10,876 nucleotides of DNA from the NCBI GenBank assembly GCA_035531115.1, contig DATKTP010000242.1, forward strand, positions 1 through 10,876, given 5' to 3'. The position numbers and the translations under genes are program-made. Source of the DNA: Candidatus Deferrimicrobium sp. (GTDB taxonomy: Archaea; Asgardarchaeota; Lokiarchaeia; Helarchaeales; HEL-GB-A). Below, piece by piece: positions 1 through 9,132 of the stretch. The notes beneath the pieces are model-generated. The model saw only the letters and a list, made by a program, of their open reading frames with translations. It was not told the origin of the DNA and did no database searches. Numbering within the stretch: the stretch's first letter is position 1; every line of letters starts with the position of its first letter.

Positions 1-926
1 AAACTATCACTTATAACCTCCATTCTATTAATTAGTATTGTGAAATGGAATTTACCAGCTGAGATATCTTCTAATGAAATTTCATAAACTCTTTGATATT
101 CTTCACTTTCCCAACTATATTCTGTTTTATTAGAATAAATGAAATTTATTCTAATCTTTTGAAATGTTTTTGAATTCGAGAGAGTAATTTTAAAAATAGT
201 TTTTTCAAACGAATAATCAATAATATAAGTTCTCTTTCTATAAAATGCATCAGGATTTAATTCTAATTTGTCTAATAATTCCGAATCCTCACAGATTTTC
301 TTTGCATAATTTAATTCTGCAGGAGATCGAACAAGAATTTTCTCTATATATTTTAATTCGATTTTTTGGAAAATATCTACCTCAGCTTGTACAATAAGAC
401 ACATTTTTTTATATTCGTCATCATCCATAGAAATATATCTACCTTCTATCATTTTTCGCCTCCACAAATCGAAGTATTTCCATTCAATCTCCTCAAATGT
501 TTTTAAAATATCTTCAAAACTGGCAGATTTTGAAGACGTGAAATGAGCAGTCGTACTCCATATATTTTCGTTTAATAATATTTTTGGATTAATACACAAG
601 TAGATAGGAATGATTTTATGTTTGTCTAATTCATTATTCTTTATACCTTCTGTTTTATGAACCATTGGTGTCTTTATTGTGTAATATAGAGGTACATACT
701 CATCCTTATTTTTACCCTTTCTTTTATCAATCAAACTTGCTTCTGAGCCATTCTTAAATGTGATTTTATCCTCACCTATTAGTTTTCTTGAAAGAATAGC
801 TTTGGATCTTATGATTCCTTTTAAATTTTGAAGTGTGGTATAATGGATTAGATGAGAAATTCGTTGTTTCTCTAAAATTGCTTTAATTTTTATCCATTTT
901 AATTTTAAATTTGATAATATAAACAC
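1..926 (-). CDS. DarT-like (DUF4433-type) ADP-ribosyltransferase domain protein with an additional C-terminal region; 3' end runs off the window
   Basis: Not in the supplied track. Hand translation of the minus strand gives one stop-free frame from 926 to 1 (308 codons): (start)FILSNLKLKWIKIKAILEKQRISHLIHYTTLQNLKGIIRSKAILSRK...DEYVPLYYTIKTPMVH...WSTTAHFTSSKSASF...KKMCLIVQAEVDIFQKIELKYIEKILVRS... These match the three hallmark DarT/DUF4433 blocks: H-x-T-x3-NL..I...G.L; YVPFYF..x.PM; QAE-x-hydrophobic...I..I.V. More than 100 further residues (beta-rich, unrecognised) follow. The start is uncertain. The first canonical in-frame start is GTG at 926. An ATG at 930 with AGGG about 8 nt upstream is in another frame and stops after 15 codons. 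Confidence 0.7.
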   Translation of the reverse strand, partial: MFILSNLKLKWIKIKAILEKQRISHLIHYTTLQNLKGIIRSKAILSRKLIGEDKITFKNGSEASLIDKRKGKNKDEYVPLYYTIKTPMVHKTEGIKNNELDKHKIIPIYLCINPKILLNENIWSTTAHFTSSKSASFEDILKTFEEIEWKYFDLWRRKMIEGRYISMDDDEYKKMCLIVQAEVDIFQKIELKYIEKILVRSPAELNYAKKICEDSELLDKLELNPDAFYRKRTYIIDYSFEKTIFKITLSNSKTFQKIRINFIYSNKTEYSWESEEYQRVYEISLEDISAGKFHFTILINRMEVISDS

Positions 927-1071: not shown

Positions 1072-1260
1072 TTATTCTAGGACCTTTTCAATGATAAGCT
1101 TATCGTCTTCAATCCTTATCGAAACATAAGTACCCTCTTGTACCTTAAATTCATTGGCAATCTTACTTGGGAGGACTACCGCAAGACTATTACTTATTTT
1201 AAAGACTTTCCTGACTTCACGATTCGCTGACAATTTGAATTCCTTCTTCTGCCATATCAC
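1072..1260 (-). CDS. AbrB/SpoVT (MazE-like) family DNA-binding protein
   Basis: 62-aa ORF. SNSLAVVLPSKIANEFKVQEGTYVSIRIEDDKLIIEKV fits the SpoVT-AbrB swapped-hairpin pattern (h-h-h-P-x-x-h...G-x-x-V-x-h...h-h-h-x-K). The start is either GTG 1260 (44-nt overlap with the upstream gene) or TTG 1233 (17-nt overlap, AAGGA about 7 nt upstream). Confidence 0.75.
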   Translation of the reverse strand: MIWQKKEFKLSANREVRKVFKISNSLAVVLPSKIANEFKVQEGTYVSIRIEDDKLIIEKVLE

Positions 1261-3070
1261 TTAACCCTGTGACAATGACATACTCGGTAACATCTTTGAT
1301 GTAATTTTTAATTATTTCGAATCTGGAGGGGTCATAGCTGGTAATGACTTCATCAATCACGAAGAAGGGAAAGGTGGGAACGAATTCTTCTTTCGCGGCT
1401 ACGAGGACTATTAAGGCAAGGGTGATGCGTTCGCTGGTGGATAACGCTTCAAACGGCCATTTATCAATGATCTTCCCCGCTTTTATCCTAGTAATAGAAA
1501 TCCTTCCATCCGTTTTAAGTTCTATATCTTTAAAATCCTTAAATTGCAATTCTTCGTAAATCTCATTGGCTCTTCGCTCAAATCTTTTGCATACAGAATC
1601 AATTAATTCGTCTTTCCTGATTGCAAGGTGCGAAATTAACCCTTCAATGAACCTGATCCGTTTTGTTAGCGCATCAGCGTCTTTGGTTTTTCCTCGCAGG
1701 GCTTCAATGTTTTCCTCATCCGAGATCGTTCTCTGCTTCAAGATTTCAATATTATTAATCAACTTTTCGCGTTTTTGCCACGTTTCAAATGTAGCTTTTT
1801 CTGAAAATTGGAAGAGCTTCTCTATTTCTGCTTCATACTTAGTTTGTTCTTGTTCCAATTCGGCTATTTCAGTTCTAAGTTTGTTCTTATCAAGCTCTCG
1901 ATTTTGAAGTGTGCTAGTTGTTTTGCGAAGATCAGTTTCAACTATGCTCAATTGCCTTTGTGATTTCTCTAGTTCGGTTTTTTTTCGCCCTAAATCTTCT
2001 ATCTCTCTAGTTTTTTGAACGATTTTATTCCCTAAGTCACTACTAGCTTTTTCATTTTTTCGTTGCCAATCTTGTAAATCTTTTAATGAAAGCGTCTTAC
2101 CACAGGCATAACATTGTGTTCCACCAGGAGCTAAGTCACCGTGTCGTTTAATCTTAACCCAATTATCATTTGCCGATTTAATTGCAGCTTGACACTTTGT
2201 ATTCTCGGTTTCCAGGGCTTTCAACTCTTGGTTGGTGTTGTTGGTGCTTTTCACAACTTTTTCAATTTCTTTTTCGATTAATGGATAATCAGCTTTTATT
2301 TCATCGACCAATTCTTGCTTGGTTTTGATTTGTTCCGCTAAAGCTTTAATTTGATCTTCTAAACTATCGAAATTCCCTTTCTTCTTCCGCAATTTGTCGT
2401 CTATTGCTCTCTTTTCTCCTATTTTTTCGTGGTACTTGTTCCTCATTTGTTGATCCGCTAACGCGTCTGTTTCATCCACTTGTGGTACGGTTTCAAGCTC
2501 TTTTTCCAATTCTGCAATTTCGTTTCTGCTCTTAAGCAATCGATCTTGTGTCATTTCCAATTGAGTTAAATCATCTCTGAAAATTTGGTGCTGTCTCAAG
2601 TAGTTTTTTTTCATTTTGTCTAAAGAGGAAGTAATAACATCAAAGAGATTACTATCAGAGATATTTTCAATAAAAGTCCTAATAGGTTTGCCCCGAAGTA
2701 TCTGATTTATGAGATCGTTATCGGGCGTTGCAAAACTGGTTAATTGCGCTTTATTCCCTGCTTCTAATGAAACATTTCCTTCAAAGCTGTAGAGATCGTT
2801 TCCAGCGCGTCTAAACCGTTTGTTCCAATCTATATTTTGGTTTGTCAATGAAATTTCGATAGTATCGTGCGCCCCTGTAAATAAATTCATTAAGAATCCT
2901 TTATTTTTTAAGTCAGGGTCATCCATTGTGAATAATTCTAACGCATTTATCAAACTCGTTTTTCCCGTAGCATTGGGAGCTTTAACTACATTCAACCCTT
3001 TATCAAATTCAAAAATTTCTTTATTGGCAAAAATACCGACATTTTCCACTTCTAACTTCAATTTACTCAT
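1217..3070 (-). CDS. Rad50/SMC-like ABC ATPase with long coiled coil and central CxxC zinc-hook-like motif
   Basis: 617 aa. The N-terminal head carries Walker A (VVKAPNATGKTSLINALE). About 400 aa are heptad-like, K/E/Q-rich coiled coil, interrupted at mid-length by GGTQCYACGKTLSLKDL (compare Rad50 hook C-P-x-C-G-R-x-L). The C-terminal head carries a signature-like LSTSERITLALIVLVA and Walker B FFVIDEV, then YVIVTGLSD where Rad50 has the His-switch (V-S-H-D). The start ATG overlaps the upstream stop (ATGA). Confidence 0.9.
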   Translation of the reverse strand: MSKLKLEVENVGIFANKEIFEFDKGLNVVKAPNATGKTSLINALELFTMDDPDLKNKGFLMNLFTGAHDTIEISLTNQNIDWNKRFRRAGNDLYSFEGNVSLEAGNKAQLTSFATPDNDLINQILRGKPIRTFIENISDSNLFDVITSSLDKMKKNYLRQHQIFRDDLTQLEMTQDRLLKSRNEIAELEKELETVPQVDETDALADQQMRNKYHEKIGEKRAIDDKLRKKKGNFDSLEDQIKALAEQIKTKQELVDEIKADYPLIEKEIEKVVKSTNNTNQELKALETENTKCQAAIKSANDNWVKIKRHGDLAPGGTQCYACGKTLSLKDLQDWQRKNEKASSDLGNKIVQKTREIEDLGRKKTELEKSQRQLSIVETDLRKTTSTLQNRELDKNKLRTEIAELEQEQTKYEAEIEKLFQFSEKATFETWQKREKLINNIEILKQRTISDEENIEALRGKTKDADALTKRIRFIEGLISHLAIRKDELIDSVCKRFERRANEIYEELQFKDFKDIELKTDGRISITRIKAGKIIDKWPFEALSTSERITLALIVLVAAKEEFVPTFPFFVIDEVITSYDPSRFEIIKNYIKDVTEYVIVTGLSDMAEEGIQIVSES

Positions 3071-3267
3071 GGTTCATCCCACCCATCCGCATATTTGTTG
3101 AGAATTTCCAACACTTTATCTTCGGCCACGTTGGGGAGGTGACCCGATTTTATTTTGTGTTGCTTGACGATTGAGAAGATTTCTCTCTCACACTCAACGA
3201 ACACGTCAGCTCCAGATTTCGAGCTTCCTGTAATATTTTCCTTGACTTTGGTTTTTCTTCTAGACAT
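3067..3267 (-). CDS. Small hypothetical protein (66 aa), translationally coupled to the Rad50/SMC-like gene
   Basis: ATG at 3267 is preceded by GGAGGT 6 nt upstream. The stop TGA overlaps the ATG of the next gene (ATGA at 3067-3070). No recognisable domain. Confidence 0.6.
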   Translation of the reverse strand: MSRRKTKVKENITGSSKSGADVFVECEREIFSIVKQHKIKSGHLPNVAEDKVLEILNKYADGWDEP

Positions 3268-3527
3268 CTACTAACCTCCAAAACTTTTTCAGGTATATCC
3301 CATTCGTGTAAAGGTTCAGCTACGAAAATATCTAAACCCTCATCGAATCTTTTCCTTAAACTCCATAACATCGCTAAAATTTCGCCATTTGATTCAGTTA
3401 AAAATACATCTGAACTTAATTTTTCGATAAAAAACTTATTTATATCTTGACGTCGTTTATCTTGATGCCAGCTCCAAATTATATCTTTAACTGTTGTATT
3501 TCTTATTTTTATTATTAAAAAGGTCAT
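3150..3527 (-). CDS. Hypothetical protein; 3' end uncertain (out-of-frame overlap with the 3067-3267 ORF)
   Basis: The track ORF 3150-3542 starts at TTG. I prefer the in-frame ATG at 3527 (MTFLIIKIRNTTVKDIIWSWHQDKRRQ...). The last roughly 39 codons overlap the next ORF in another frame and end in a low-complexity tail (SSQSSSNTK). The true stop may therefore differ, or there may be a frameshift. No recognisable domain. Confidence 0.45.
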   Translation of the reverse strand: MTFLIIKIRNTTVKDIIWSWHQDKRRQDINKFFIEKLSSDVFLTESNGEILAMLWSLRKRFDEGLDIFVAEPLHEWDIPEKVLEVSRCLEEKPKSRKILQEARNLELTCSLSVREKSSQSSSNTK

Positions 3528-3543
3528 AAAAAACCATCTCAAA

Positions 3544-3568
3544 AAATGTCGTCACAGTGACGACATTT
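3544..3568 (-). terminator. Perfect 12-bp-arm palindrome (hairpin) followed by a T-tract inside the operon; possible attenuator/terminator or protein-binding palindrome
   Basis: Plus strand is aaatgtcgtcac-a-gtgacgacattt. On the minus strand the hairpin begins at the last base of the AAA+ stop codon and runs into TTTTTT (rc of 3541-3546), then GAGATGG and the next start. Confidence 0.4.
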
Positions 3569-4278
3569 CACAATTCTTTTGACAGGATCGTGTCAATGTA
3601 TTGCTCGGTAATCAGTTTTTCAATCTCCCTAATTGTTTTGAAATCGCCCTTATCAATTTGCGATATCATTTGATCCGCATCCATCTGCAACTGTTTACAT
3701 TTGTTTTCAGCAATAATTTTGAGAGTTTCTTTAGTAGGAAAGGGAAATTCGATAGGATACAATCTGTCTTTAACTGCTTTATCTATTAATTCAAATCGAT
3801 TCGTCGTTAAAATAACTGAAATCTTAGATGTATCTACATTATCTAGGCAATGGAAGAATACGTTATTTTGAGCGATGTGCCACGATTCCCCCTTGATCCA
3901 ATCTCTTGTCGGAAAGACTGACTCACAATCATCTATGATAATAATCACGCGACCATAATTTTCTGCTTTCTTAAAAATTTCCGCTATCTGCCTCTCCGAT
4001 TCACCATAAAGAGATCGGGCAATATCTGAACCATCCACAAAAATGTAGGTAAAATTCAGAACATTGGCAAGAACTTTCGCTATGGTGGTTTTCCCGGTTC
4101 CCACCTCACCAAAAAAAATAAATCCTTTAATACCGTCCTTGATTTTGTATTTTTGTTGATAGTAAATAATCTTCTGGACTTTTTCGAGAATCGCAAGATA
4201 TTCTTGTCCAAAAACGGTATTTTTGGAGTAAGGATTATCTATCGGTTTTATGATGTTCAACTCTTCTTTTTTCTGCAT
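3568..4278 (-). CDS. Minimal classical-clade AAA+ ATPase (single AAA module, no recognisable N-terminal substrate domain)
   Basis: 236 aa. Motifs: Walker A GEVGTGKTT; pore-loop-1-like SLYGESERQI (compare K-aromatic-V-G-E-S-E-K of Vps4/FtsH/proteasomal ATPases); Walker B IIIIDDCES; sensor-1 ILTTN; SRH-like NRFELIDKAVKDR; C-terminal helical lid. GAGG lies in the 13-nt spacer upstream. Confidence 0.9.
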   Translation of the reverse strand: MQKKEELNIIKPIDNPYSKNTVFGQEYLAILEKVQKIIYYQQKYKIKDGIKGFIFFGEVGTGKTTIAKVLANVLNFTYIFVDGSDIARSLYGESERQIAEIFKKAENYGRVIIIIDDCESVFPTRDWIKGESWHIAQNNVFFHCLDNVDTSKISVILTTNRFELIDKAVKDRLYPIEFPFPTKETLKIIAENKCKQLQMDADQMISQIDKGDFKTIREIEKLITEQYIDTILSKEL

Positions 4279-4291
4279 TTAATACCGCCTC

Positions 4292-5149
4292 TTAATTTGT
4301 AGATCTTTTCTGTTGTCGAGATTGCTGTCTTGCGCGCATACGAATTAAGGCGCGTTCGTTCCATAATTGGATGAAATTCTGAACGTGTGGTGAAAAAATA
4401 ATTTTATTTCCATCTTTCTTAACTATCATTCTGATATCGGCATCTTTTACATTATTTCGCTCGATTGCCGTCGAGAAGCGATAGTAGGGGAAGCCCCGGT
4501 GAGTAAACTCGGCTCTAAGGTCTTCCAATAAGAGCTCGCCACCGTTATTTGAGGCAATTAAAATGCCAAAAATTAGGGGAATAAGTGCACTGATTCCTTT
4601 TTTTTCGATTCCAAGAGCAATCATCTTTCCCAGTGCGCTACCGAAGATTTCGTGTTCGATCCCTTTCGCTTGAATTTGGTCAAGGAAGTTATCCCAAATG
4701 GGGGTGAGTCGAACAAAAGCGGAAAACGGAGAATCACCTTTATTGTGGATAATTTCGAGAAATCCGTAATCTTTTAATGTTAACAATTTTTCAAAGATTT
4801 TTTTCAAGCTCCCGCATGCAGATCGGATAGTCATTATTGAAATCTTACCTTCCTCCGCTTTTTTTATCCGATCTTCAATTTCCCCGACTCTACCTGTCCT
4901 TTCGTATTGTATTCGATTTGTATCAAGATCGGCTCTAAGGGATTTTGCCTCAAATCGCTTTTTCAAGGTTAATATAAAGATAGTATTAATGATATTTTCA
5001 ATAGTTTGTAAGAGGGTGTATTCAGTATAACTGCTTAGTGATTGAACTCCAAACAATAGATTTATATTTTGAGTCTCTAGCAACTCTTTGATTATTGTGG
5101 CCAAGACTTCAACGAAATCTTGGTTTTCAGGGACATCCAAACCATCCAT
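4292..5149 (-). CDS. Uncharacterised protein, paralog B of the 5408-6214 product
   Basis: 285 aa, alignable end to end with the 268-aa product of 5408-6214. Shared blocks: LQTIENIIN, ERTG, SAC, L(S/T)PIW, GKMIALGIEKKGI, (P)(F/Y)xRF, ER-x-N, D(I/L)RMI. Basic C-terminal tail RMRARQQSRQQKRSTN. The start ATG is 2 nt after the histone stop, with GAGGAGAG immediately upstream. Confidence 0.85.
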   Translation of the reverse strand: MDGLDVPENQDFVEVLATIIKELLETQNINLLFGVQSLSSYTEYTLLQTIENIINTIFILTLKKRFEAKSLRADLDTNRIQYERTGRVGEIEDRIKKAEEGKISIMTIRSACGSLKKIFEKLLTLKDYGFLEIIHNKGDSPFSAFVRLTPIWDNFLDQIQAKGIEHEIFGSALGKMIALGIEKKGISALIPLIFGILIASNNGGELLLEDLRAEFTHRGFPYYRFSTAIERNNVKDADIRMIVKKDGNKIIFSPHVQNFIQLWNERALIRMRARQQSRQQKRSTN

Positions 5150-5151
5150 TA

Positions 5152-5388
5152 TTATCTCTCCTCTGGTTCAAGGGTGTACTTAAAAATTTCCTTTACCGCA
5201 TCTCGCACATCGGTATCGCGAATGTTTGTTCGACCAGATAAGTTTGCTAATTTCACAGCTTCACCGGCGATCATCTCTGCATGCTCCGTTAGAACATCTA
5301 AAAACAGCTTTTTTGCTTCTTTTGAGACCTGTTTTGCGCCGCTATTTTTTAAAATTCTATTAACCGCCGCTATACTAAAGTAACTCAT
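5152..5388 (-). CDS. Archaeal histone-fold protein (HMfA/B-like) with short acidic C-terminal extension
   Basis: MSYFSIAAVNRILKNSGAKQVSKEAKKLFLDVLTEHAEMIAGEAVKLANLSGRTNIRDTDVRDAVKEIFKYTLEPEER aligns without gaps to HMfB as I recall it ([66 protein letters not shown]). The track start is TTG 5391. I prefer ATG 5388, which has GAGGT 7 nt upstream. Confidence 0.9.
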   Translation of the reverse strand: MSYFSIAAVNRILKNSGAKQVSKEAKKLFLDVLTEHAEMIAGEAVKLANLSGRTNIRDTDVRDAVKEIFKYTLEPEER

Positions 5389-5407
5389 CAATAAAACCTC
5401 GCTTTTA

Positions 5408-6214
5408 TTAATATCCTAATTGGCGTAAACGCTTCTGAACTCTCTTATACCATTGATAGACTGCGACTGTTGAATGTTTCGCAAAGTAAACACGTTCCTC
5501 TGTTTTTGAGGGGATCATACGAAGGTCGGGATGTTTTTCGTTATCACGTTCAAGGACGCTGGCAAATCGGTGAAATGGAATGCCCTGTTCAACGTATAAC
5601 TCTTGAAACTCGCCATGTGATATCCAACCATCATCAAATGCCCTTTTCAAACTGAGGATGAGGGGTTTCAACGGTTTAATCCCCTTTTTCTCAATGCCCA
5701 ATGCGATCATCTTCCCAATTGCGCTACTGAAAATGTCGTGTTCATACCCCTGATTATGAATGTGATCAATCGTCCCATTCCAGATGGGAGATAATTGTAC
5801 AGTTGCAGAACCACCAGGAGTCTTTTCGATGATGATGAATTTTTCCTCGTGTAACTTATTCAGTTTCGCTTCAACGTCGGATAAGCCCGTGCAAGCACTG
5901 ATTAGATTGGATAAAAATATTTTGCGAGCCTCTACCCGTGCAAGCTTTTGCTGATACAGTTCTAATTGTCCCGTTCGTTCGAGTTCTTCTTTATTAGCAT
6001 CGATGTATTTGGTGAGACGGGTTTTCTCGTCAATGAGGTGGATATTTTGGTCGAAAAGTACATTAATAATGTTTTCAATGGTCTGAAGCGGCGACCAGAT
6101 TGTAAAACAGCTCAAAGATTGAATTCCCCTTAGTAATTCATAGTTCCCCTTTTCTAAACCCTCCCGAATTAACGGAAGTAACTCTTTAATGTAATGTTCC
6201 CAAACTGTACTCAT
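5408..6214 (-). CDS. Uncharacterised protein, paralog A (first gene of the operon)
   Basis: 268 aa. Shares the conserved blocks listed for 4292-5149. Basic C-terminal tail WYKRVQKRLRQLGY. AGGGGA lies about 6-8 nt upstream of the ATG. A long AT-rich non-coding region lies upstream. Confidence 0.85.
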   Translation of the reverse strand: MSTVWEHYIKELLPLIREGLEKGNYELLRGIQSLSCFTIWSPLQTIENIINVLFDQNIHLIDEKTRLTKYIDANKEELERTGQLELYQQKLARVEARKIFLSNLISACTGLSDVEAKLNKLHEEKFIIIEKTPGGSATVQLSPIWNGTIDHIHNQGYEHDIFSSAIGKMIALGIEKKGIKPLKPLILSLKRAFDDGWISHGEFQELYVEQGIPFHRFASVLERDNEKHPDLRMIPSKTEERVYFAKHSTVAVYQWYKRVQKRLRQLGY

Positions 6215-6489
6215 ACTTATCCCCTAAATTTTTCATAAAGAACATAAAATTTACCTATGAAGGTTATGGAGTTTATGTATATTGCATATATTTCTTATAT
6301 GATTTTATGTTTAACCTCGAATTATTTTTATCTTTTTAGTTATAGGTAGTAGTATATTCTATTTTAGAAAATTTAAATATTTCTTTTGTTTAAAGGAATA
6401 GAATGTTTAAATTATTCTAATAATTATAATAGATTCTGAATAAATATTCCTAAAAAAATTTTATAAACATAACTAGTTTAGAAAGTCGA

Positions 6490-6496
6490 TTATATA
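6490..6496 (+). promoter_or_regulatory. TATA-box-like element (TTATATA) positioned for a leaderless plus-strand transcript
   Basis: It is centred about 27 nt upstream of the ATG at 6520, which opens a 32-codon ORF (MTIKEINENLIWKGKPYIRIPSIIGLVYEVTI, 6520-6618). A purine-rich BRE-like stretch (gaaag) lies just upstream. It is divergent from the operon. The region is very AT-rich, so chance TATA-like strings are common. Confidence 0.25.
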
Positions 6497-7149
6497 CGCT
6501 ATGTGGCTATGGACATAGAATGACCATAAAAGAAATTAATGAGAACCTAATTTGGAAAGGAAAACCTTATATTCGGATCCCTTCAATTATTGGGTTGGTT
6601 TATGAAGTTACCATCTGATGAAAATCTTTATTTTGAACTTGAAAAATTACCGAAGTGTATTGACCTGAAATAAGAATTTCCAATTGTTGTTAATTTGAAA
6701 TGCAAAATATAACTTAAAGAAAAGCGTATTGGAGCTATATTTATCGAAAGATTCATACGTTCAACATAGAAAAATCGATATTTGGCAGTAACTTGAGTGA
6801 CTCTTTTATAAATTGCATTAACTTCTTTTCTAAAATATCGAGATATTCGAGGATATTCTTTTTATAAGGCAATATTGGAATTATTATTTCATTCGGACCG
6901 ATTTCGTTCAATTCTTTATCTAATGGTATCGATGAATCCAAATTTCCAAAAAGTGTGTTATAATGGACAATAATATCCCTTATTCTGATTGCTTCTTGAA
7001 TCCATTGCGTGATATTATTTTTAATGAGATCTATAAGCTTAAATCTGTTTATATAAAGAATATTTTGAATTCTTCGATATTTCTAAAGTATTTTTTAAAT
7101 AAAAGTTGTTTTCTAGTAAAAAGTTGTTTTTTTCCCAAATAATTATTGT

Positions 7150-7971
7150 TTAACTAGATTTTTCTCGTTTTTGAATAATCTCAAAGTGCCGTGCCACTTG
7201 ATCATAATCGCTTTTATAGATATGGAGACTATTGCTGAAATCCACGTATTGGATGAATTCGAGGTTCAAACTGCTTGATAACCATCTCCCAAACTCAGTA
7301 AAACCCAAAATATTAGCCCCAACGGCTTTGTACAAATCGCGGCTCCTCCATGTTGTCTCTAGAACCATATATTTATTTTCTATAATCCGAATCCAGAGTC
7401 TTTGTAAACATGGAGCACCAGAAATAATTAAATCTTTATATGGCGCCCAAGTAGTTACCTGCAATTTACGACTAATTGGTTCTTCTTTCGCTTTTTCAAT
7501 GAGCATTTCTATTTGATTAATACCTTCATCTGCCTTGAACTCTTTTTCGGTAATTCCATCAAAGATTTTGATGGTGGGTCTCTTCTTTTGTTTCAAGAGT
7601 TCTGCATGTTTGGGCTGCACCAAGCCCCATGAAAACAGCCTCTCATGGTACGTGTATGATTCTACGCCCTCTAAAACCCGGTGATCCATATCTCCATCAA
7701 TCAAATCCCGCACATATTGTTTTTCGCGGTAGGGCTTTTTTTTATCTGGACCGGTCACAAACATGGAAACACTGACAAAATCTTTCCGGGAGAAACGGGG
7801 TTCTTGCAAAGGATTCATGACATTAACTAACACGGAAGCTTCTTTGCTTAATTCATCGGAATAATGCTGTTCAATCTCAATACCTTTGTACCAAACCGCT
7901 TCCACGGCTTTTTCCCAAGCCTCGCCACAAGTTTCAGCCTCAACAAAGAGGATAGGTAAATGGGGTATCAT
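7150..7971 (-). CDS. thyA: Thymidylate synthase, ThyA family (divergent archaeal type)
   Basis: Alignable by eye to E. coli ThyA core motifs: [10 protein letters not shown] ~ [33 protein letters not shown] ~ [34 protein letters not shown] ~ LAPCHAFFQF (catalytic Cys); [13 protein letters not shown] ~ QRSCDVFLGLPFN; NSLHIY ~ DTHLY. The track start is TTG 7980. I prefer ATG 7971, which has GAGGT 10 nt upstream. Confidence 0.85.
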   Translation of the reverse strand: [273 protein letters not shown]

Positions 7972-8208
7972 TTTCTTCAAGACCTCATCCTAGGAGTTAT
8001 GAATCTACGGGAATGAAGGATCTATAAAAATTTTATTCTCATATTAGAAGAAAAATTGCAGAAAAATTGGAATTTTATCGGTGGCTGTTTCCCTTTTCCC
8101 CCTTTTCTTCAAAGAATTTTTATTTTAATAAAGTAAAGTTTTAAAGAAGTGATAAGAATGAAACCAAATGAAGACTCGTTATAGAAAACATTTATTCACG
8201 TGGATTGA

Positions 8209-8243: not shown

Positions 8244-8338
8244 GGGCCCATAGCGTAGTTGGATAACGCGCAGGCCTTCGGACCATTCGATGGGAAGAGA
8301 GCCTGAGGTCCAGGGTCCGAATCCCTGTGGGCCCGCCA
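8244..8338 (+). tRNA. tRNA-Arg (anticodon TCG) with canonical-position intron; CCA encoded
   Basis: Hand fold: acceptor GGGCCCA/TGGGCCC; D arm GCGT-AGTTGGATA-ACGC; anticodon stem CAGGC/GCCTG with loop C-T-TCG-G | 18-nt intron (8282-8299) | A; variable AGGTC; T arm CAGGG-TCCGAAT-CCCTG; discriminator G; then CCA. Confidence 0.9.
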
Positions 8339-8904: not shown

Positions 8905-9013
8905 GCCTCGATAGTGTAGTCCGGCGATCATCTGGGACTGTCACTCCCAGGACTGACGAAAACGCCGTTTTGGTCAGTGGGATACCCGGGTCCAAATCCC
9001 GGTCGGGGCGCCA
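8905..9013 (+). tRNA. tRNA-Asp (anticodon GTC) with a non-canonical intron in the variable-loop region; CCA encoded
   Basis: Acceptor GCCTCGA/TCGGGGC (one G-U). D arm GTGT-AGTCCGGCGA-TCAT, the weak D stem typical of Asp tRNAs. Anticodon arm TGGGA-CTGTCAC-TCCCA. Then 36 nt (8950-8985) where 4-5 are expected, containing the hairpin ACTGAC-G-AAAAC-gcc-GTTTT-G-GTCAGT. T arm CCGGG-TCCAAAT-CCCGG. Discriminator G, then CCA. Confidence 0.8.
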
Positions 9014-9038: not shown

Positions 9039-9132
9039 GGGCTCGTAGCTCAGCTAGGCAGAGCGTCGGGCTTTTAAATCAGAAATTGATAAAGAAACCC
9101 GATGGTCGCGGGTTCAATTCCCGTCGAGCCCG
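9039..9132 (+). tRNA. tRNA-Lys (anticodon TTT) with canonical-position intron
   Basis: Acceptor GGGCTCG/CGAGCCC; D arm GCTC-AGCTAGGCA-GAGC; anticodon stem TCGGG/CCCGA with loop C-T-TTT-A | 20-nt intron (9077-9096) | A; variable TGGTC; T arm GCGGG-TTCAATT-CCCGT; discriminator G. No encoded CCA. Confidence 0.9.

Follow-up and report, generated by a model that had tools for sequence, protein, structure and literature searches.

Non-polymerising histone-fold dimers, represented by CHRAC-15/17 with ISWI, Dpb3/Dpb4 with Pol epsilon, MHF1/2 with FANCM, and NF-YB/NF-YC, lend eukaryotic ATPase or polymerase complexes an extra DNA-binding surface. Examples of histone dimers serving as accessory modules of DNA motors are mainly eukaryotic (CHRAC, Pol epsilon Dpb3/4, and MHF). 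The archaeal histones HMfA and HMfB are encoded by single-gene units (PMC11390915), unlike the cassette-borne histone gene described here, and the dimer–dimer interface of archaeal histones is formed by L46, H49, D59, and L62 (Henneman et al. 2018, PMC6136690). Among SMC-related ATPases, members of the ASRP family have been described to be involved in chromosome compartmentalisation (ClsN; PMC9389158) and, in the case of Sph3 together with RdfA, in cell shape, RdfA being the fixed neighbour gene of the haloarchaeal Sph3-type ASRPs (PMC10869688). For the genes flanking ASRPs, 'no apparent consensus' was reported (PMC9389158).

In this study, a stretch of DNA of 10,876 nt (contig DATKTP010000242.1, hereafter referred to as the window) was analyzed, in which a histone-fold gene, termed HF, had attracted attention in a first-pass annotation. 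HF was found to reside in a cassette of seven to eight genes arranged in the order (X')-HF-X-AAA-Y-Z-ASRP-(AbrB) (Table 1), and no description of this cassette was found in the literature and libraries searched.

Table 1. Genes of the cassette in the window, listed along the direction of transcription.
Feature	Coordinates	Strand	Evidence
X paralog 1 (X'), 268 aa, tandem winged-helix family	5408..6214	-	38% identity to X285
Histone-fold protein HF, 78 aa	5152..5388	-	PF00808, NF043032, HMfB alignment, AF2 + Foldseek
X, 285 aa (X285), conserved partner gene	4292..5149	-	AF2 winged-helix model
Small classic-clade AAA ATPase, 236 aa	3568..4278	-	PF00004, E = 1.7e-23
Y, 125 aa, conserved cassette protein	3150..3527	-	Alignment across cassettes
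Z, 66 aa	3067..3267	-	Position and sequence conserved in other loci
ASRP-type SMC-related ATPase, 617 aa	1217..3070	-	NF045487, PF13476, motifs
AbrB/SpoVT-like small DNA-binding protein, 62 aa	1072..1260	-	PF04014, E = 5e-11

Identification of the Histone-Fold Protein HF

The HF open reading frame starts with an ATG at position 5388, ends with a TAA stop codon (5154-5152), and is preceded by a Shine–Dalgarno motif (GAGGT) located 7 nt upstream of the start codon. An in-frame TTG at 5391 represents a less likely alternative start. The deduced protein scored above the cut-offs of the Pfam family PF00808 (E = 6.3e-10; 39.6 bits, cut-off 21.4) and the NCBIfam model NF043032 (archaea_histone; 56.6 bits, cut-off 50), and a sequence search of the PDB retrieved HMfA (E = 2.9e-10) and HMfB (E = 1.2e-08), all of these matches being well beyond chance. 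HMMER aligned HF residues 5–67 to residues 4–66 of HMfB without a single gap, HF position i corresponding to HMfB position i-1 (HMfB numbering is used in the following). The gap-free alignment and the HMfB numbering given in the first-pass annotation therefore hold.

The AF2 model of HF, computed from a 27-sequence alignment (pLDDT 89.6), comprises helices at residues 6–15, 23–50, and 58–69 and thus the helix–loop–long helix–loop–helix arrangement of solved histones, on which it superposes. The best Foldseek matches were HMfA and HMfB (target-normalised TM 0.92–0.95, rmsd 0.7–1.1 Å), and NF-Y and Dpb4-Dpb3 were also found among the structural matches. The acidic C-terminal tail YTLEPEER, noticed previously in the sequence, was disordered in the model (pLDDT about 54). 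Most cassette histones end with a conserved tail of the YLGWEE(E/K)K type, compared to KYTLEPEER in the window. The HF open reading frame thus encodes a genuine archaeal histone-fold protein of the nucleosomal type.

DNA-Contact and Tetramerisation Residues

All residue calls made beforehand proved correct, with R10, K13, G16, R52, and D59 being kept in HF and R19Q, K53T, T54N, H49L, and L62D representing substitutions; L46 is likewise kept. Regarding the dimer–dimer interface, HF thus keeps L46 and D59, but carries Leu and Asp at positions 49 and 62. Furthermore, a survey of 18 distinct cassette-linked histones revealed that His49 occurs in none of them, and that 17 carry a polar or small residue at position 62, with Leu in a single one. 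These counts support the assumption that HF may be unable to form canonical tetramers or hypernucleosomes, and, as far as can be deduced from the sequences, the four-helix-bundle surface (H49, L62) used for such assemblies appears to have been lost across the cassette histones. The small residue at the stacking interface, G16, is Gly in HF and in nine of the 18 proteins.

Of the arginines anchored in the minor groove (R10 and R19) and the loop-2 contacts (R52, K53, and T54), the window protein retains R10 and R52, and R19, K53, and T54 are replaced. Among the cassette histones, S21 is kept in 16 of 18, position 52 is R/K in 15, position 19 is R/K in 12, and T54 is present in 11, suggesting partial retention of the DNA contacts made by loops L1 and L2. 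The substitutions R19Q and T54N were specific to the window lineage. The R52–D59 clamp is present in HF, but not family-wide, D59 being found in only 5 of the 18 cassette histones. Since R19, K53, and T54 are lost and the net charge is only +1 (pI 8.0), DNA binding by the window protein may be weak.

In the loci read, each cassette contained one HF gene, which suggests that HF most simply forms a homodimer. Open reading frames upstream of HF in three loci (L061–L063), considered as a second HF gene, look spurious.

Gene Content of the Cassette

The X gene starts 2 nt past the HF stop codon and a gap of 19 nt separates HF from X' upstream, exactly as given previously. The paralogy of the two flanking genes was likewise verified, the similarity of X' to X extending over 263 aa (E = 1e-56), and both proteins pair together in the X family tree. 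No match for X' was obtained in Pfam, NCBIfam, or PADLOC. X' is an extra copy limited to the window lineage; beyond the window, the X'-HF-X sandwich was found only in locus L005, the usual layout being a single X downstream of HF. Only the immediate neighbours of HF had been considered in the first-pass annotation; the real unit is the cassette of seven to eight genes including an SMC-like and an AAA ATPase.

In the AF2 model of X, predicted from 45 sequences with a pLDDT of 94.7 and a pTM of 0.91, the N-terminal part is helical and includes a 46-aa helical hairpin (residues about 58–103); two winged-helix domains are also present, and the C-terminus forms a long helix. Comparison of this structure with the PDB yielded no global match and only local MarR-like winged-helix matches (E ≥ 0.09), and a PDB profile search likewise returned weak winged-helix matches only. 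In Foldseek, MAGE/kite and JetABC appeared only at a probability of ≤0.15, so that it is speculative whether X acts in the manner of a kite or kleisin. The idea that the N-terminal part of X is a cryptic histone fold pairing with HF was unsupported (hhalign probability 0.3%). An exhaustive profile search against 1.84 billion proteins recovered 51 representative clusters of the X family, which is a new tandem winged-helix family.

The AAA ATPase features a Walker A motif (GTGKT), a Walker B region (IIIIDDCE), and a pore-loop-like SLYGESE, and has no N-terminal domain. Its best NCBIfam models were CDC48, PAN, and CdvC, each scoring far under its cut-off. Between cassettes, it is conserved at 57–67% identity, and two motifs, DDCESVFP.RDW and WHIAQNNVFFH, are invariant.

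The Y protein was alignable across 12 archaeal and bacterial cassettes, and no Pfam, NCBIfam, or PDB match was obtained for it. A role of Y as effector, nuclease, or other obvious enzyme was rejected, since these searches were negative and conserved catalytic-type residues were absent in the 12 sequences. The Z gene is read in a different frame from Y, whose 3' end it overlaps by 118 nt, and also overlaps the start codon of the ASRP gene, by 4 nt; it was kept in position and sequence in seven further loci (L007, L008, L010–L013, and L016). The possibility that Y or Z represent spurious gene calls was rejected, both being conserved.

The SMC-related ATPase carries a Walker A motif (GKTS at residue 36), a zinc hook (CYAC at 320), a signature-like motif (LSTSE at 543), and a Walker B motif (FFVIDE at about 570). 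It matched model positions 1–592 of 593 of NF045487 (E = 1.1e-86), with 291.8 bits compared to the equivalog cut-off of 300. PF13476 (AAA_23) was also matched, and the PADLOC models LmuB (E = 3e-16) and JetC (about 1e-4) gave weaker matches. Judging from these sequence matches, the protein is best called ASRP-like. The AbrB-like gene, frequently the last one of the cassette, overlaps the 3' end of the ASRP gene by 44 nt, and this overlap recurs in L008, L020–L022, L026, L028–L030, L036–L038, and L061. For HF, X, Y, and Z, no PADLOC match was found, and domain searches with Pfam and PADLOC revealed no recognisable nuclease or other effector in the cassette.

Distribution of the Cassette and Linkage of HF to Its Neighbours

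The gene order of the window was repeated in L005–L008, and the cassette was also detected in GTDB MAGs (one labelled Nitrosotalea, one Thermoplasmata, and one unclassified archaeon) and in 40 JGI metagenome loci. The GTDB and metagenome loci were reached by scanning with the well-conserved AAA alignment; a GTDB scan with a three-sequence X alignment yielded no loci. Word-indexed homologue searches returned two matches for X285 and one for HF alone, and an exhaustive profile search as well as an eight-sequence HF profile were needed. HF relatives proved to be rare (one to four member sequences per 90% cluster in the profile search).

HF was located directly 5' of X in 16 of the 18 archaeal-type loci with enough upstream sequence, with a spacing between -14 and +15 nt in these 16 loci, and in none of the 11 Dehalococcoidia-type loci. 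Three further histone relatives found by the HF profile, i.e., all those checked, also sit in the cassette, and every HF locus examined lies inside a cassette of seven to eight genes rather than as a stand-alone housekeeping gene. The Dehalococcoidia cassettes represent an HF-less version in which the AAA ATPase is retained at 47–54% identity, and at least one HF-less cassette was found in an archaeon (L044). As HF-less cassettes exist, HF is not essential to the core machine.

The mean identity was 33% for HF and likewise for X, and Mantel tests on the distance matrices showed that HF diverged together with X (r = 0.91, p ≤ 5e-4) and with the AAA ATPase (r = 0.84, p ≤ 5e-4), which makes it unlikely that host histones were captured repeatedly. 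Furthermore, all 16 HF-linked X proteins carry the X hairpin, and 11 of 13 HF-less ones lack it. Phylogeny confounds this correlation, and the hairpin is kept without an adjacent HF in L028 and L030.

The surroundings of the archaeal-type cassettes featured phage integrases (four proteins) and IS240, IS66, DUF772, and rve transposases, together with an N6/N4 methyltransferase, AlwI, ThsB-TIR (Thoeris), DarT, HerA, nSTAND3, and MCM. Further integrases were detected near L061 and L064, BglII and three HNH endonucleases were neighbours in L011, and pVip, mad2, and mad8 were among the PADLOC matches of cassette neighbours. The Dehalococcoidia-type loci had mixed, partly housekeeping neighbourhoods. 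Att-like direct repeats joining tRNA genes to the cassette borders were searched for, none being convincing. A viral origin was also considered; IMG/VR gave one partial AAA match only, indicating that the cassette is not typically viral. The cassette is horizontally mobile, and HF is a dedicated, co-evolving member of it and not a chromatin housekeeping histone.

Proposed Function of HF

HF is most likely a non-polymerising histone dimer that provides a mobile SMC-like machine with a subunit for DNA binding or as an adaptor. Because it is a fixed, co-evolving cassette member, its probable role is alongside dedicated partners rather than in general chromatin packaging; this had been suspected at the outset and is supported by the adjacency of HF and X, the cassette location of the three additional relatives, and the Mantel correlation of both proteins. 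For the joint proposal that a non-polymerising HF dimer, docked on X, serves an ASRP complex acting on foreign or mobile DNA, we estimate a probability of roughly 0.6. According to this proposal, HF would form a histone-fold dimer devoid of a surface for joining further dimers, would be made in a fixed ratio to X via translational coupling, and would dock on X, possibly at the 46-aa hairpin of the HF-linked X proteins. HF would then constitute the DNA-binding or recognition module of the SMC-like ASRP ATPase complex, whose remodelling or recycling would fall to the small classic AAA ATPase. Foreign or mobile DNA would be the target of the complex, which would thereby serve defence or the maintenance of the element. 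Such targets are the most likely ones because of the integrase, transposase, and defence neighbours and the patchy distribution of the cassette, pointing to a role in defence or mobile-element maintenance. A role in defence is, on the other hand, weakened by the fact that the characterised ASRPs act in compartmentalisation or cell shape.

Alternatively, HF could be an autorepressor controlling transcription of the cassette rather than a structural subunit, comparable to the wHTH or RHH regulators found at the head of many defence operons. HF is the first cassette gene at most loci, as would be expected for such a regulator, but is the second gene, behind X', in the window. In HF-less archaeal-type cassettes (L028 and L030), a ribbon-helix-helix gene is located about 400 nt 5' of X, a DGQHR/DndB-like protein occupies the upstream position in L043 and L044, and DndB lies 5' of HF in L063. 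A second small DNA binder, the AbrB-like protein, closes many cassettes, and histone-fold dimers can be transcription factors, as exemplified by NF-Y and NC2, both of which were among the Foldseek matches of HF. Yet the probable translational coupling of HF to X and the equally fast joint divergence of both proteins speak against regulation, and the presence of HF tracks the insertion in X, so that a stoichiometric partner fits better than a regulator. Moreover, no archaeal histone is known to us to repress an operon in a sequence-specific manner, and the regulatory role is considered unlikely.

It is even more doubtful that HF is a client or switch of the cassette AAA ATPase, as known for HORMA and TRIP13 or for histones and ATAD2/Yta7, the C-terminal tail serving as a handle. 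Here, the AAA ring would grip the aromatic–acidic tail and thereby time the binding of HF (and X) to DNA or to the ASRP. The AAA ATPase belongs to the classic protein-remodelling clade, possesses the pore-loop-like motif without an N-terminal domain of its own, and has TRIP13 and IetA among its PADLOC matches, and the tail is conserved in most cassette histones and predicted to be disordered in the window. However, HF cannot be the sole substrate since the HF-less Dehalococcoidia cassettes keep the AAA ATPase, and the Walker B motif has DD instead of the usual DE, so that hydrolysis may be atypical.

Comparably slim chances are assigned to the notion that, through HF, an SMC-like surveillance machine could sense or make use of host histone chromatin for self/non-self discrimination, which would be a chromatin-based mechanism of prokaryotic immunity. 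HF might, for example, heterodimerise with host histones, cap their polymers, or mark naked incoming DNA, and histone-coated self DNA could be told apart from uncoated viral or plasmid DNA. This notion would explain the occurrence of HF in archaeal cassettes only and never in the Dehalococcoidia versions.

Finally, that HF is an ordinary host chromatin variant (e.g., a hypernucleosome-limiting 'capstone') lying beside unrelated genes is largely refuted: HF is closest in sequence and fold to the nucleosomal HMfA/HMfB, and tetramer-interface substitutions are known from chromosomal archaeal histone variants (PMC6136690), but its neighbourhood is conserved across Nitrosotalea-, Thermoplasmata-, and unclassified-archaeon-labelled loci and many metagenomes, all relatives checked from the profile search are cassette genes, HF co-diverges with X and the AAA ATPase, integrases, transposases, and defence genes flank the loci, and a housekeeping histone would be far commoner.

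HF would extend the catalogue of prokaryotic histones by a new class embedded in operons, 'SMC-associated histones', in which the histone fold and an SMC-like ATPase are brought together in one small transferable prokaryotic gene set. The cassette, with about seven small genes, would be a tractable system for studying how a DNA motor could use a non-polymerising histone dimer as its accessory module. In addition to the newly defined family X, it comprises two more uncharacterised families, Y and Z. It is also a candidate for a new archaeal mobile or defence system based on an SMC-like ATPase, for which the HF-less bacterial version offers a natural comparison.

Comparison with Known Systems

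HF has the three-helix fold and the R52–D59 salt bridge in common with HMfA and HMfB of Methanothermus fervidus (1HTA, 1A7W, and 5T5K), to which it is 38–45% identical, and differs from them by its broken tetramer interface and its disordered acidic tail. The RdgC/IHF histones (Schwab et al. 2024, PMC11390915) are likewise encoded by an early gene of a conserved operon, implying functional coupling. However, they possess a long coiled-coil or structured C-terminal extension, whereas the HF tail is short and disordered, and no RdgC-like, transmembrane, or IHF-like gene is present in the window cassette. A text search of the same publication revealed no ATPase- or SMC-linked histone group (PMC11390915).

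The eukaryotic accessory dimers CHRAC, Dpb3-4, MHF, and NF-Y are heterodimers of two proteins, whereas the cassette encodes one HF; their partner proteins are non-homologous to those of the cassette, and the resemblance is thus limited to a works-like analogy.

Lamassu (LmuABC) and Wadjet (JetABCD) are also mobile cassettes of defence islands combining an SMC/Rad50-like ATPase with small subunits. The cassette described here contains neither the LmuA effector and LmuC nor the JetA kleisin, the JetB kite, and the JetD nuclease, and its ATPase matched the ASRP model far more strongly than LmuB. To our knowledge, neither Lamassu nor Wadjet includes a histone-fold or a classic AAA component.

Among the systems compared, the ASRP family, including ClsN (coalescin), Sph1/Sph2, and Sph3, has the zinc hook and the Walker motifs in common with the cassette ATPase (PMC9389158), which scored 8 bits under the NCBI equivalog cut-off of NF045487. 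Unlike the family as reported, the cassette subfamily comes with a conserved set of six partners, one of them a histone. These would represent the first conserved partners for a branch of a family reported without a consistent gene neighbourhood.

Histone Identity and Residue Pattern of HF

The histone-fold protein HF is encoded by a small gene with a GAGGT ribosome-binding motif 7 nt 5' of the ATG. HF belongs to the histone-fold/archaeal histone superfamily, as documented by profile and fold comparisons: Pfam PF00808 matched with E = 6.3e-10 and 39.6 bits (cut-off 21.4), NCBIfam archaea_histone NF043032 with 56.6 bits (cut-off 50), and the solved histones HMfA and HMfB with E = 2.9e-10 and E = 1.2e-08, respectively. 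The AF2 model, for which 27 relatives served as input, reached a pLDDT of 89.6, features helices at residues 6-15, 23-50, and 58-69, and superimposes on HMfA and HMfB with TM values of 0.92-0.95; the fold is of the nucleosomal type. In the HMMER alignment, HF residues 5-67 correspond to HMfB 4-66 without gaps, and the HMfB numbering used in the first-pass annotation is therefore correct. All residues it had called conserved (R10, K13, G16, R52, and D59) or changed (R19Q, K53T, T54N, H49L, and L62D) were verified, and the acidic tail is present and disordered in the model. Likewise, the gaps of 19 nt and 2 nt to the flanking genes X' and X are exact, and these genes are indeed paralogous (38% identity, E = 1e-56).

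Residues at functional positions in 18 distinct cassette histones (HMfB numbering)
Position	Role	State in cassette histones
H49	tetramer interface	His in 0/18; L, Y, C, T, V, S, N, I or D instead
L62	tetramer interface	small or polar in 17/18
S21	DNA contact	16/18
R52	DNA contact	R/K in 15/18
R19	DNA anchor	R/K in 12/18
T54	DNA contact	11/18
D59	clamp and interface	D in only 5/18

The dimer-dimer interface that tetramers and hypernucleosomes require consists of L46, H49, D59, and L62 (Henneman et al., PMC6136690). Read against this interface, the state of positions 49 and 62 predicts that the surface for tetramerisation has been lost, which is what defines the cassette-histone subfamily, and HF departs from hypernucleosome-forming histones at this first point of comparison. 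R19Q and T54N are peculiar to the window lineage, the closest relative of window HF (in the related locus L005) having R at position 19. Most subfamily members possess the conserved aromatic-acidic C-terminal tail YLGWEE(E/K)K, represented in the window by the terminal KYTLEPEER.

The Cassette Genes

The cassette genes of the window are all located on the minus strand and are separated by short gaps or overlap.

Features of the window (window positions)
Feature	Position	Strand	Remarks
DarT-like DNA ADP-ribosyltransferase toxin gene	3-926	(-)	PF14487 E = 4e-23; PADLOC DarT E = 3.5e-16; cut by contig end
AbrB-like	1072-1260	(-)	62 aa; 44-nt overlap with ATPase 3' end
SMC-related ATPase, ASRP-like	1217-3070	(-)	617 aa
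Z	3067-3267	(-)	66 aa; 118-nt overlap with Y, 4-nt overlap with next start (ASRP start codon)
Y	3150-3527	(-)	125 aa; no fold assigned
AAA ATPase	3568-4278	(-)	236 aa; PF00004 E = 2e-23; nearest CDC48, PAN, CdvC; without N-domain
X	4292-5149	(-)	285 aa; conserved partner of HF
HF	5152-5388	(-)	ATG at 5388, TAA stop at 5154-5152; 78 aa
X'	5408-6214	(-)	268 aa; additional X paralog
Spacer	6215-7149		about 930 nt, AT-rich (GC about 0.28), between cassette and thyA
Sole spacer ORF	6753-6941		62 aa; without significant match
thyA, archaeal-type thymidylate synthase-like	7150-7980	(-)	TIGR03283 (methanogen-type) E = 6e-34, 117 bits (cut-off 175)
Three tRNA genes	8244-8335, 8905-9010, 9039-9132	(+)	Rfam; 92-106 nt, long enough for introns

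X found no match in Pfam, NCBIfam, or PADLOC, and an exhaustive profile search of 1.84 billion proteins retrieved no more than 51 representative clusters, all of them without annotation. Its AF2 model (45 sequences; pLDDT 94.7, pTM 0.91) predicts a helical N-terminal region, a pair of winged-helix domains, and, at the C terminus, a long helix; Foldseek comparison to the PDB yielded no global match, but only MarR-like winged-helix matches. A 46-aa helical hairpin of constant length, located at approximately residues 58-103 of window X, was found in 16/16 HF-linked X proteins, and 18-27 unrelated residues stand in its place in 11 of the 13 HF-less ones. This distribution, confounded as it is by shared ancestry, suggests that the hairpin is a candidate docking site for HF. 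A histone fold hidden in X was not detectable (hhalign probability 0.3%).

The cassette partners of HF include a zinc-hook SMC-like ATPase and a classic-clade AAA ATPase. The NCBIfam model NF045487 for the archaea-specific SMC-related protein (ASRP) spans the whole of the former (E = 1.1e-86, 291.8 bits, slightly below the cut-off of 300), which contains Walker A, CYAC zinc hook, and Walker B motifs. AAA is the best-conserved component (57-67% identity), features the unique motifs DDCESVFP.RDW and WHIAQNNVFFH, and bears a pore-loop-like SLYGESE. Its residues 113-119 (IIIIDDCE) differ from the Walker B motif hhhhDE of classic AAA proteins in having Asp at the usual catalytic Glu position, followed by invariant Cys-Glu; this arrangement is invariant in four archaeal cassettes, and the Dehalococcoidia versions and that of locus L055 have DD-x-E (DDAE, DDVE).

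Y lacks conserved catalytic-type residues, and no recognisable nuclease or other effector domain was found in the cassette using Pfam, PADLOC, and NCBIfam. Throughout the archaeal and bacterial cassettes examined, Y and Z, of about 120-130 aa and about 60-90 aa, respectively, share approximately 90-120 nt in different frames (window 3067-3527 (-); related loci L007 2345-2799, L008 2374-2939, L010-L013, and L016). Amino-acid conservation extends across the overlap in both reading frames, so that the genes could genuinely overlap or be joined by programmed frameshifting.

Distribution and Two Forms of the Cassette

Contigs with X relatives showed the identical order HF-X-AAA-Y-Z-ASRP(-AbrB). Being the best-conserved component, AAA was chosen as alignment probe for scanning GTDB genomes and JGI metagenomes. 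The GTDB scan recovered MAGs labelled Nitrosotalea, Thermoplasmata, and 'archaeon', as well as seven Dehalococcoidia/Chloroflexota genomes, one of them a complete 3.3-Mb chromosome, while 40 loci were obtained from JGI and one partial match from IMG/VR. Searching with a profile of eight cassette histones revealed 28 relatives, all rare and metagenomic, and the three that were looked up all reside inside the cassette.

In the local HMM survey, the cassette fell into two forms. The archaeal type is HF-X(270-286 aa)-AAA-Y-Z-ASRP, frequently ending in AbrB. Of its 18 loci with 350 nt or more of sequence upstream of X, 16 have HF there, at a spacing of -14 to +15 nt. In the other two (L028 and L030), whose X cluster is shared with a Thermococcus-labelled MAG, a ribbon-helix-helix gene lies upstream instead. 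The Dehalococcoidia type is X(236-248 aa)-AAA-Y-Z'-ASRP; HF was absent from all 11 loci. A further HF-less sub-variant (L043 and L044) was found on a contig with archaeal PolD; therefore, HF-less forms also occur in archaea. Here, a DGQHR/DndB-like (ParB-fold) gene is located directly 5' of X (L043 9-794, L044 7984-9102), and at locus L063 such a gene (6389-7555) lies 5' of the histone. Together with the ribbon-helix-helix genes, these cases make the slot ahead of X seem open to different small DNA-binding proteins.

The position of HF in the cassette is fixed, and HF diverges along with it: pairwise-distance matrices correlate with r = 0.91 for HF and X and r = 0.84 for HF and AAA (Mantel p ≤ 5e-4, 16 loci). 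It follows that HF descended together with the cassette instead of being recruited time and again from host histones. The rates at which HF and X evolve are equal (mean identity 33% each; AAA 62%).

Genomic Surroundings and Origin of the Contig

Applying Pfam to 61 ORFs around archaeal-type cassettes identified four phage-type integrases, transposases (IS240 with two proteins, IS66, DUF772, and rve), an N6/N4 DNA methyltransferase with an AlwI restriction enzyme, a Thoeris ThsB-TIR protein, DarT, HerA, nSTAND3, MCM, and a McrB-like AAA_5. PADLOC additionally identified a viperin-like protein, mad2, and mad8. Integrases are located at L061 and L064, and a Thermoplasmata locus encodes BglII, three HNH endonucleases, and a UPF0175 antitoxin. 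The cassette thus resides in a mobile or defence-island setting, Dehalococcoidia-type neighbourhoods being more mixed (ABC transporters, PmbA/TldD, and a recombination directionality factor). Combined with these flanking genes, the scattered occurrence in distantly related archaea and a single class of bacteria indicates an accessory, horizontally moving cassette.

In the window, the DarT-like gene lies 145 nt 3' of the AbrB-like gene, and no DarG macrodomain antitoxin was visible within the window. Since the AbrB-like gene recurs in DarT-less cassettes, it is a cassette member and not the DarT antitoxin. The spacer has no convincing ORF and may be the cassette promoter site or an insertion-border remnant. 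The thyA product is approximately 75 aa longer than the 201-position TIGR03283 model, and so represents a divergent ThyA-like enzyme. Lying beside an accessory cassette, the tRNA genes could be a hotspot for integration; no convincing att-like direct repeat linked them to the cassette borders. ARAGORN reported only the third tRNA gene, with an odd four-base anticodon (tRNA-???, 'ttta').

The contig (ERZ27256847 k141_779732) was filed by NCBI under 'Candidatus Deferrimicrobium sp.', a bacterial phylum. On the thyA side of the cassette, it also contains the first part of the gene for archaeal RNA polymerase subunit B'' (NF007175, 627.7 bits); this gene, the three intron-containing tRNAs, the archaeal-type thymidylate synthase, and the archaeal histone mean that the contig is almost certainly archaeal and was mis-binned into a bacterial MAG. 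The related histone P0075, on a 3-kb contig labelled 'Elusimicrobiota bacterium', may be a similar case.

Proposed Function of HF

The initial proposal of a histone variant without canonical tetramers, working with dedicated partners, is supported and extended by the subfamily-wide loss at H49 and L62, the fixed place in the cassette, and the co-divergence. HF is very probably a dedicated cassette subunit and not a bulk chromatin protein. It would form a dimer unable to polymerise, be made stoichiometrically with X and bind it, and provide a DNA-binding or DNA-recognition surface for an ASRP-based complex acting on DNA. AAA, with its pore-loop-like segment, might remodel or recycle components, perhaps via the conserved acidic HF tail, and the cassette would serve either to defend against mobile DNA or to maintain it. 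We assign this proposal as a whole, including HF as a DNA-binding adaptor, a probability of roughly 0.6.

Alternatively, HF could be a transcriptional regulator of the cassette, a reading favoured by its place as first gene and by the ribbon-helix-helix or DndB-like genes filling that position elsewhere; however, its coupling to and co-divergence with X argue against this role. HF could also be a client or switch of the cassette AAA ATPase. The reading of HF as a chromosomal histone variant of the ordinary kind is largely refuted.

Comparison with Known Systems

Among the histone classes of Schwab et al. 2024 (PMC11390915), the operon-embedded RdgC and IHF histones are conceptually closest to HF, but their partners and tails are unlike those of HF; the searched text of that article contained no ATPase-linked or SMC-linked histone. 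ASRP genes are reported to lack a consensus neighbourhood (PMC9389158), and the haloarchaeal ASRP Sph3 has a role in cell shape, with RdfA as syntenic partner (PMC10869688). None of HF, X, Y, and Z is represented by a model in PADLOC (2023), and no description of this cassette was found in the literature searched on histones, SMC-like proteins, defence, and archaea. Only the cassette ATPase resembles LmuB or JetC, so the cassette is neither Lamassu nor Wadjet. Eukaryotic motors use non-nucleosomal histone-fold dimers as DNA-binding accessories, namely CHRAC-15/17, Dpb3/4, and MHF. These would be the nearest functional analogy to HF, the complexes not being homologous. What is new here is an operon-embedded histone subfamily together with a set of putative accessory subunits for an SMC-like ATPase.
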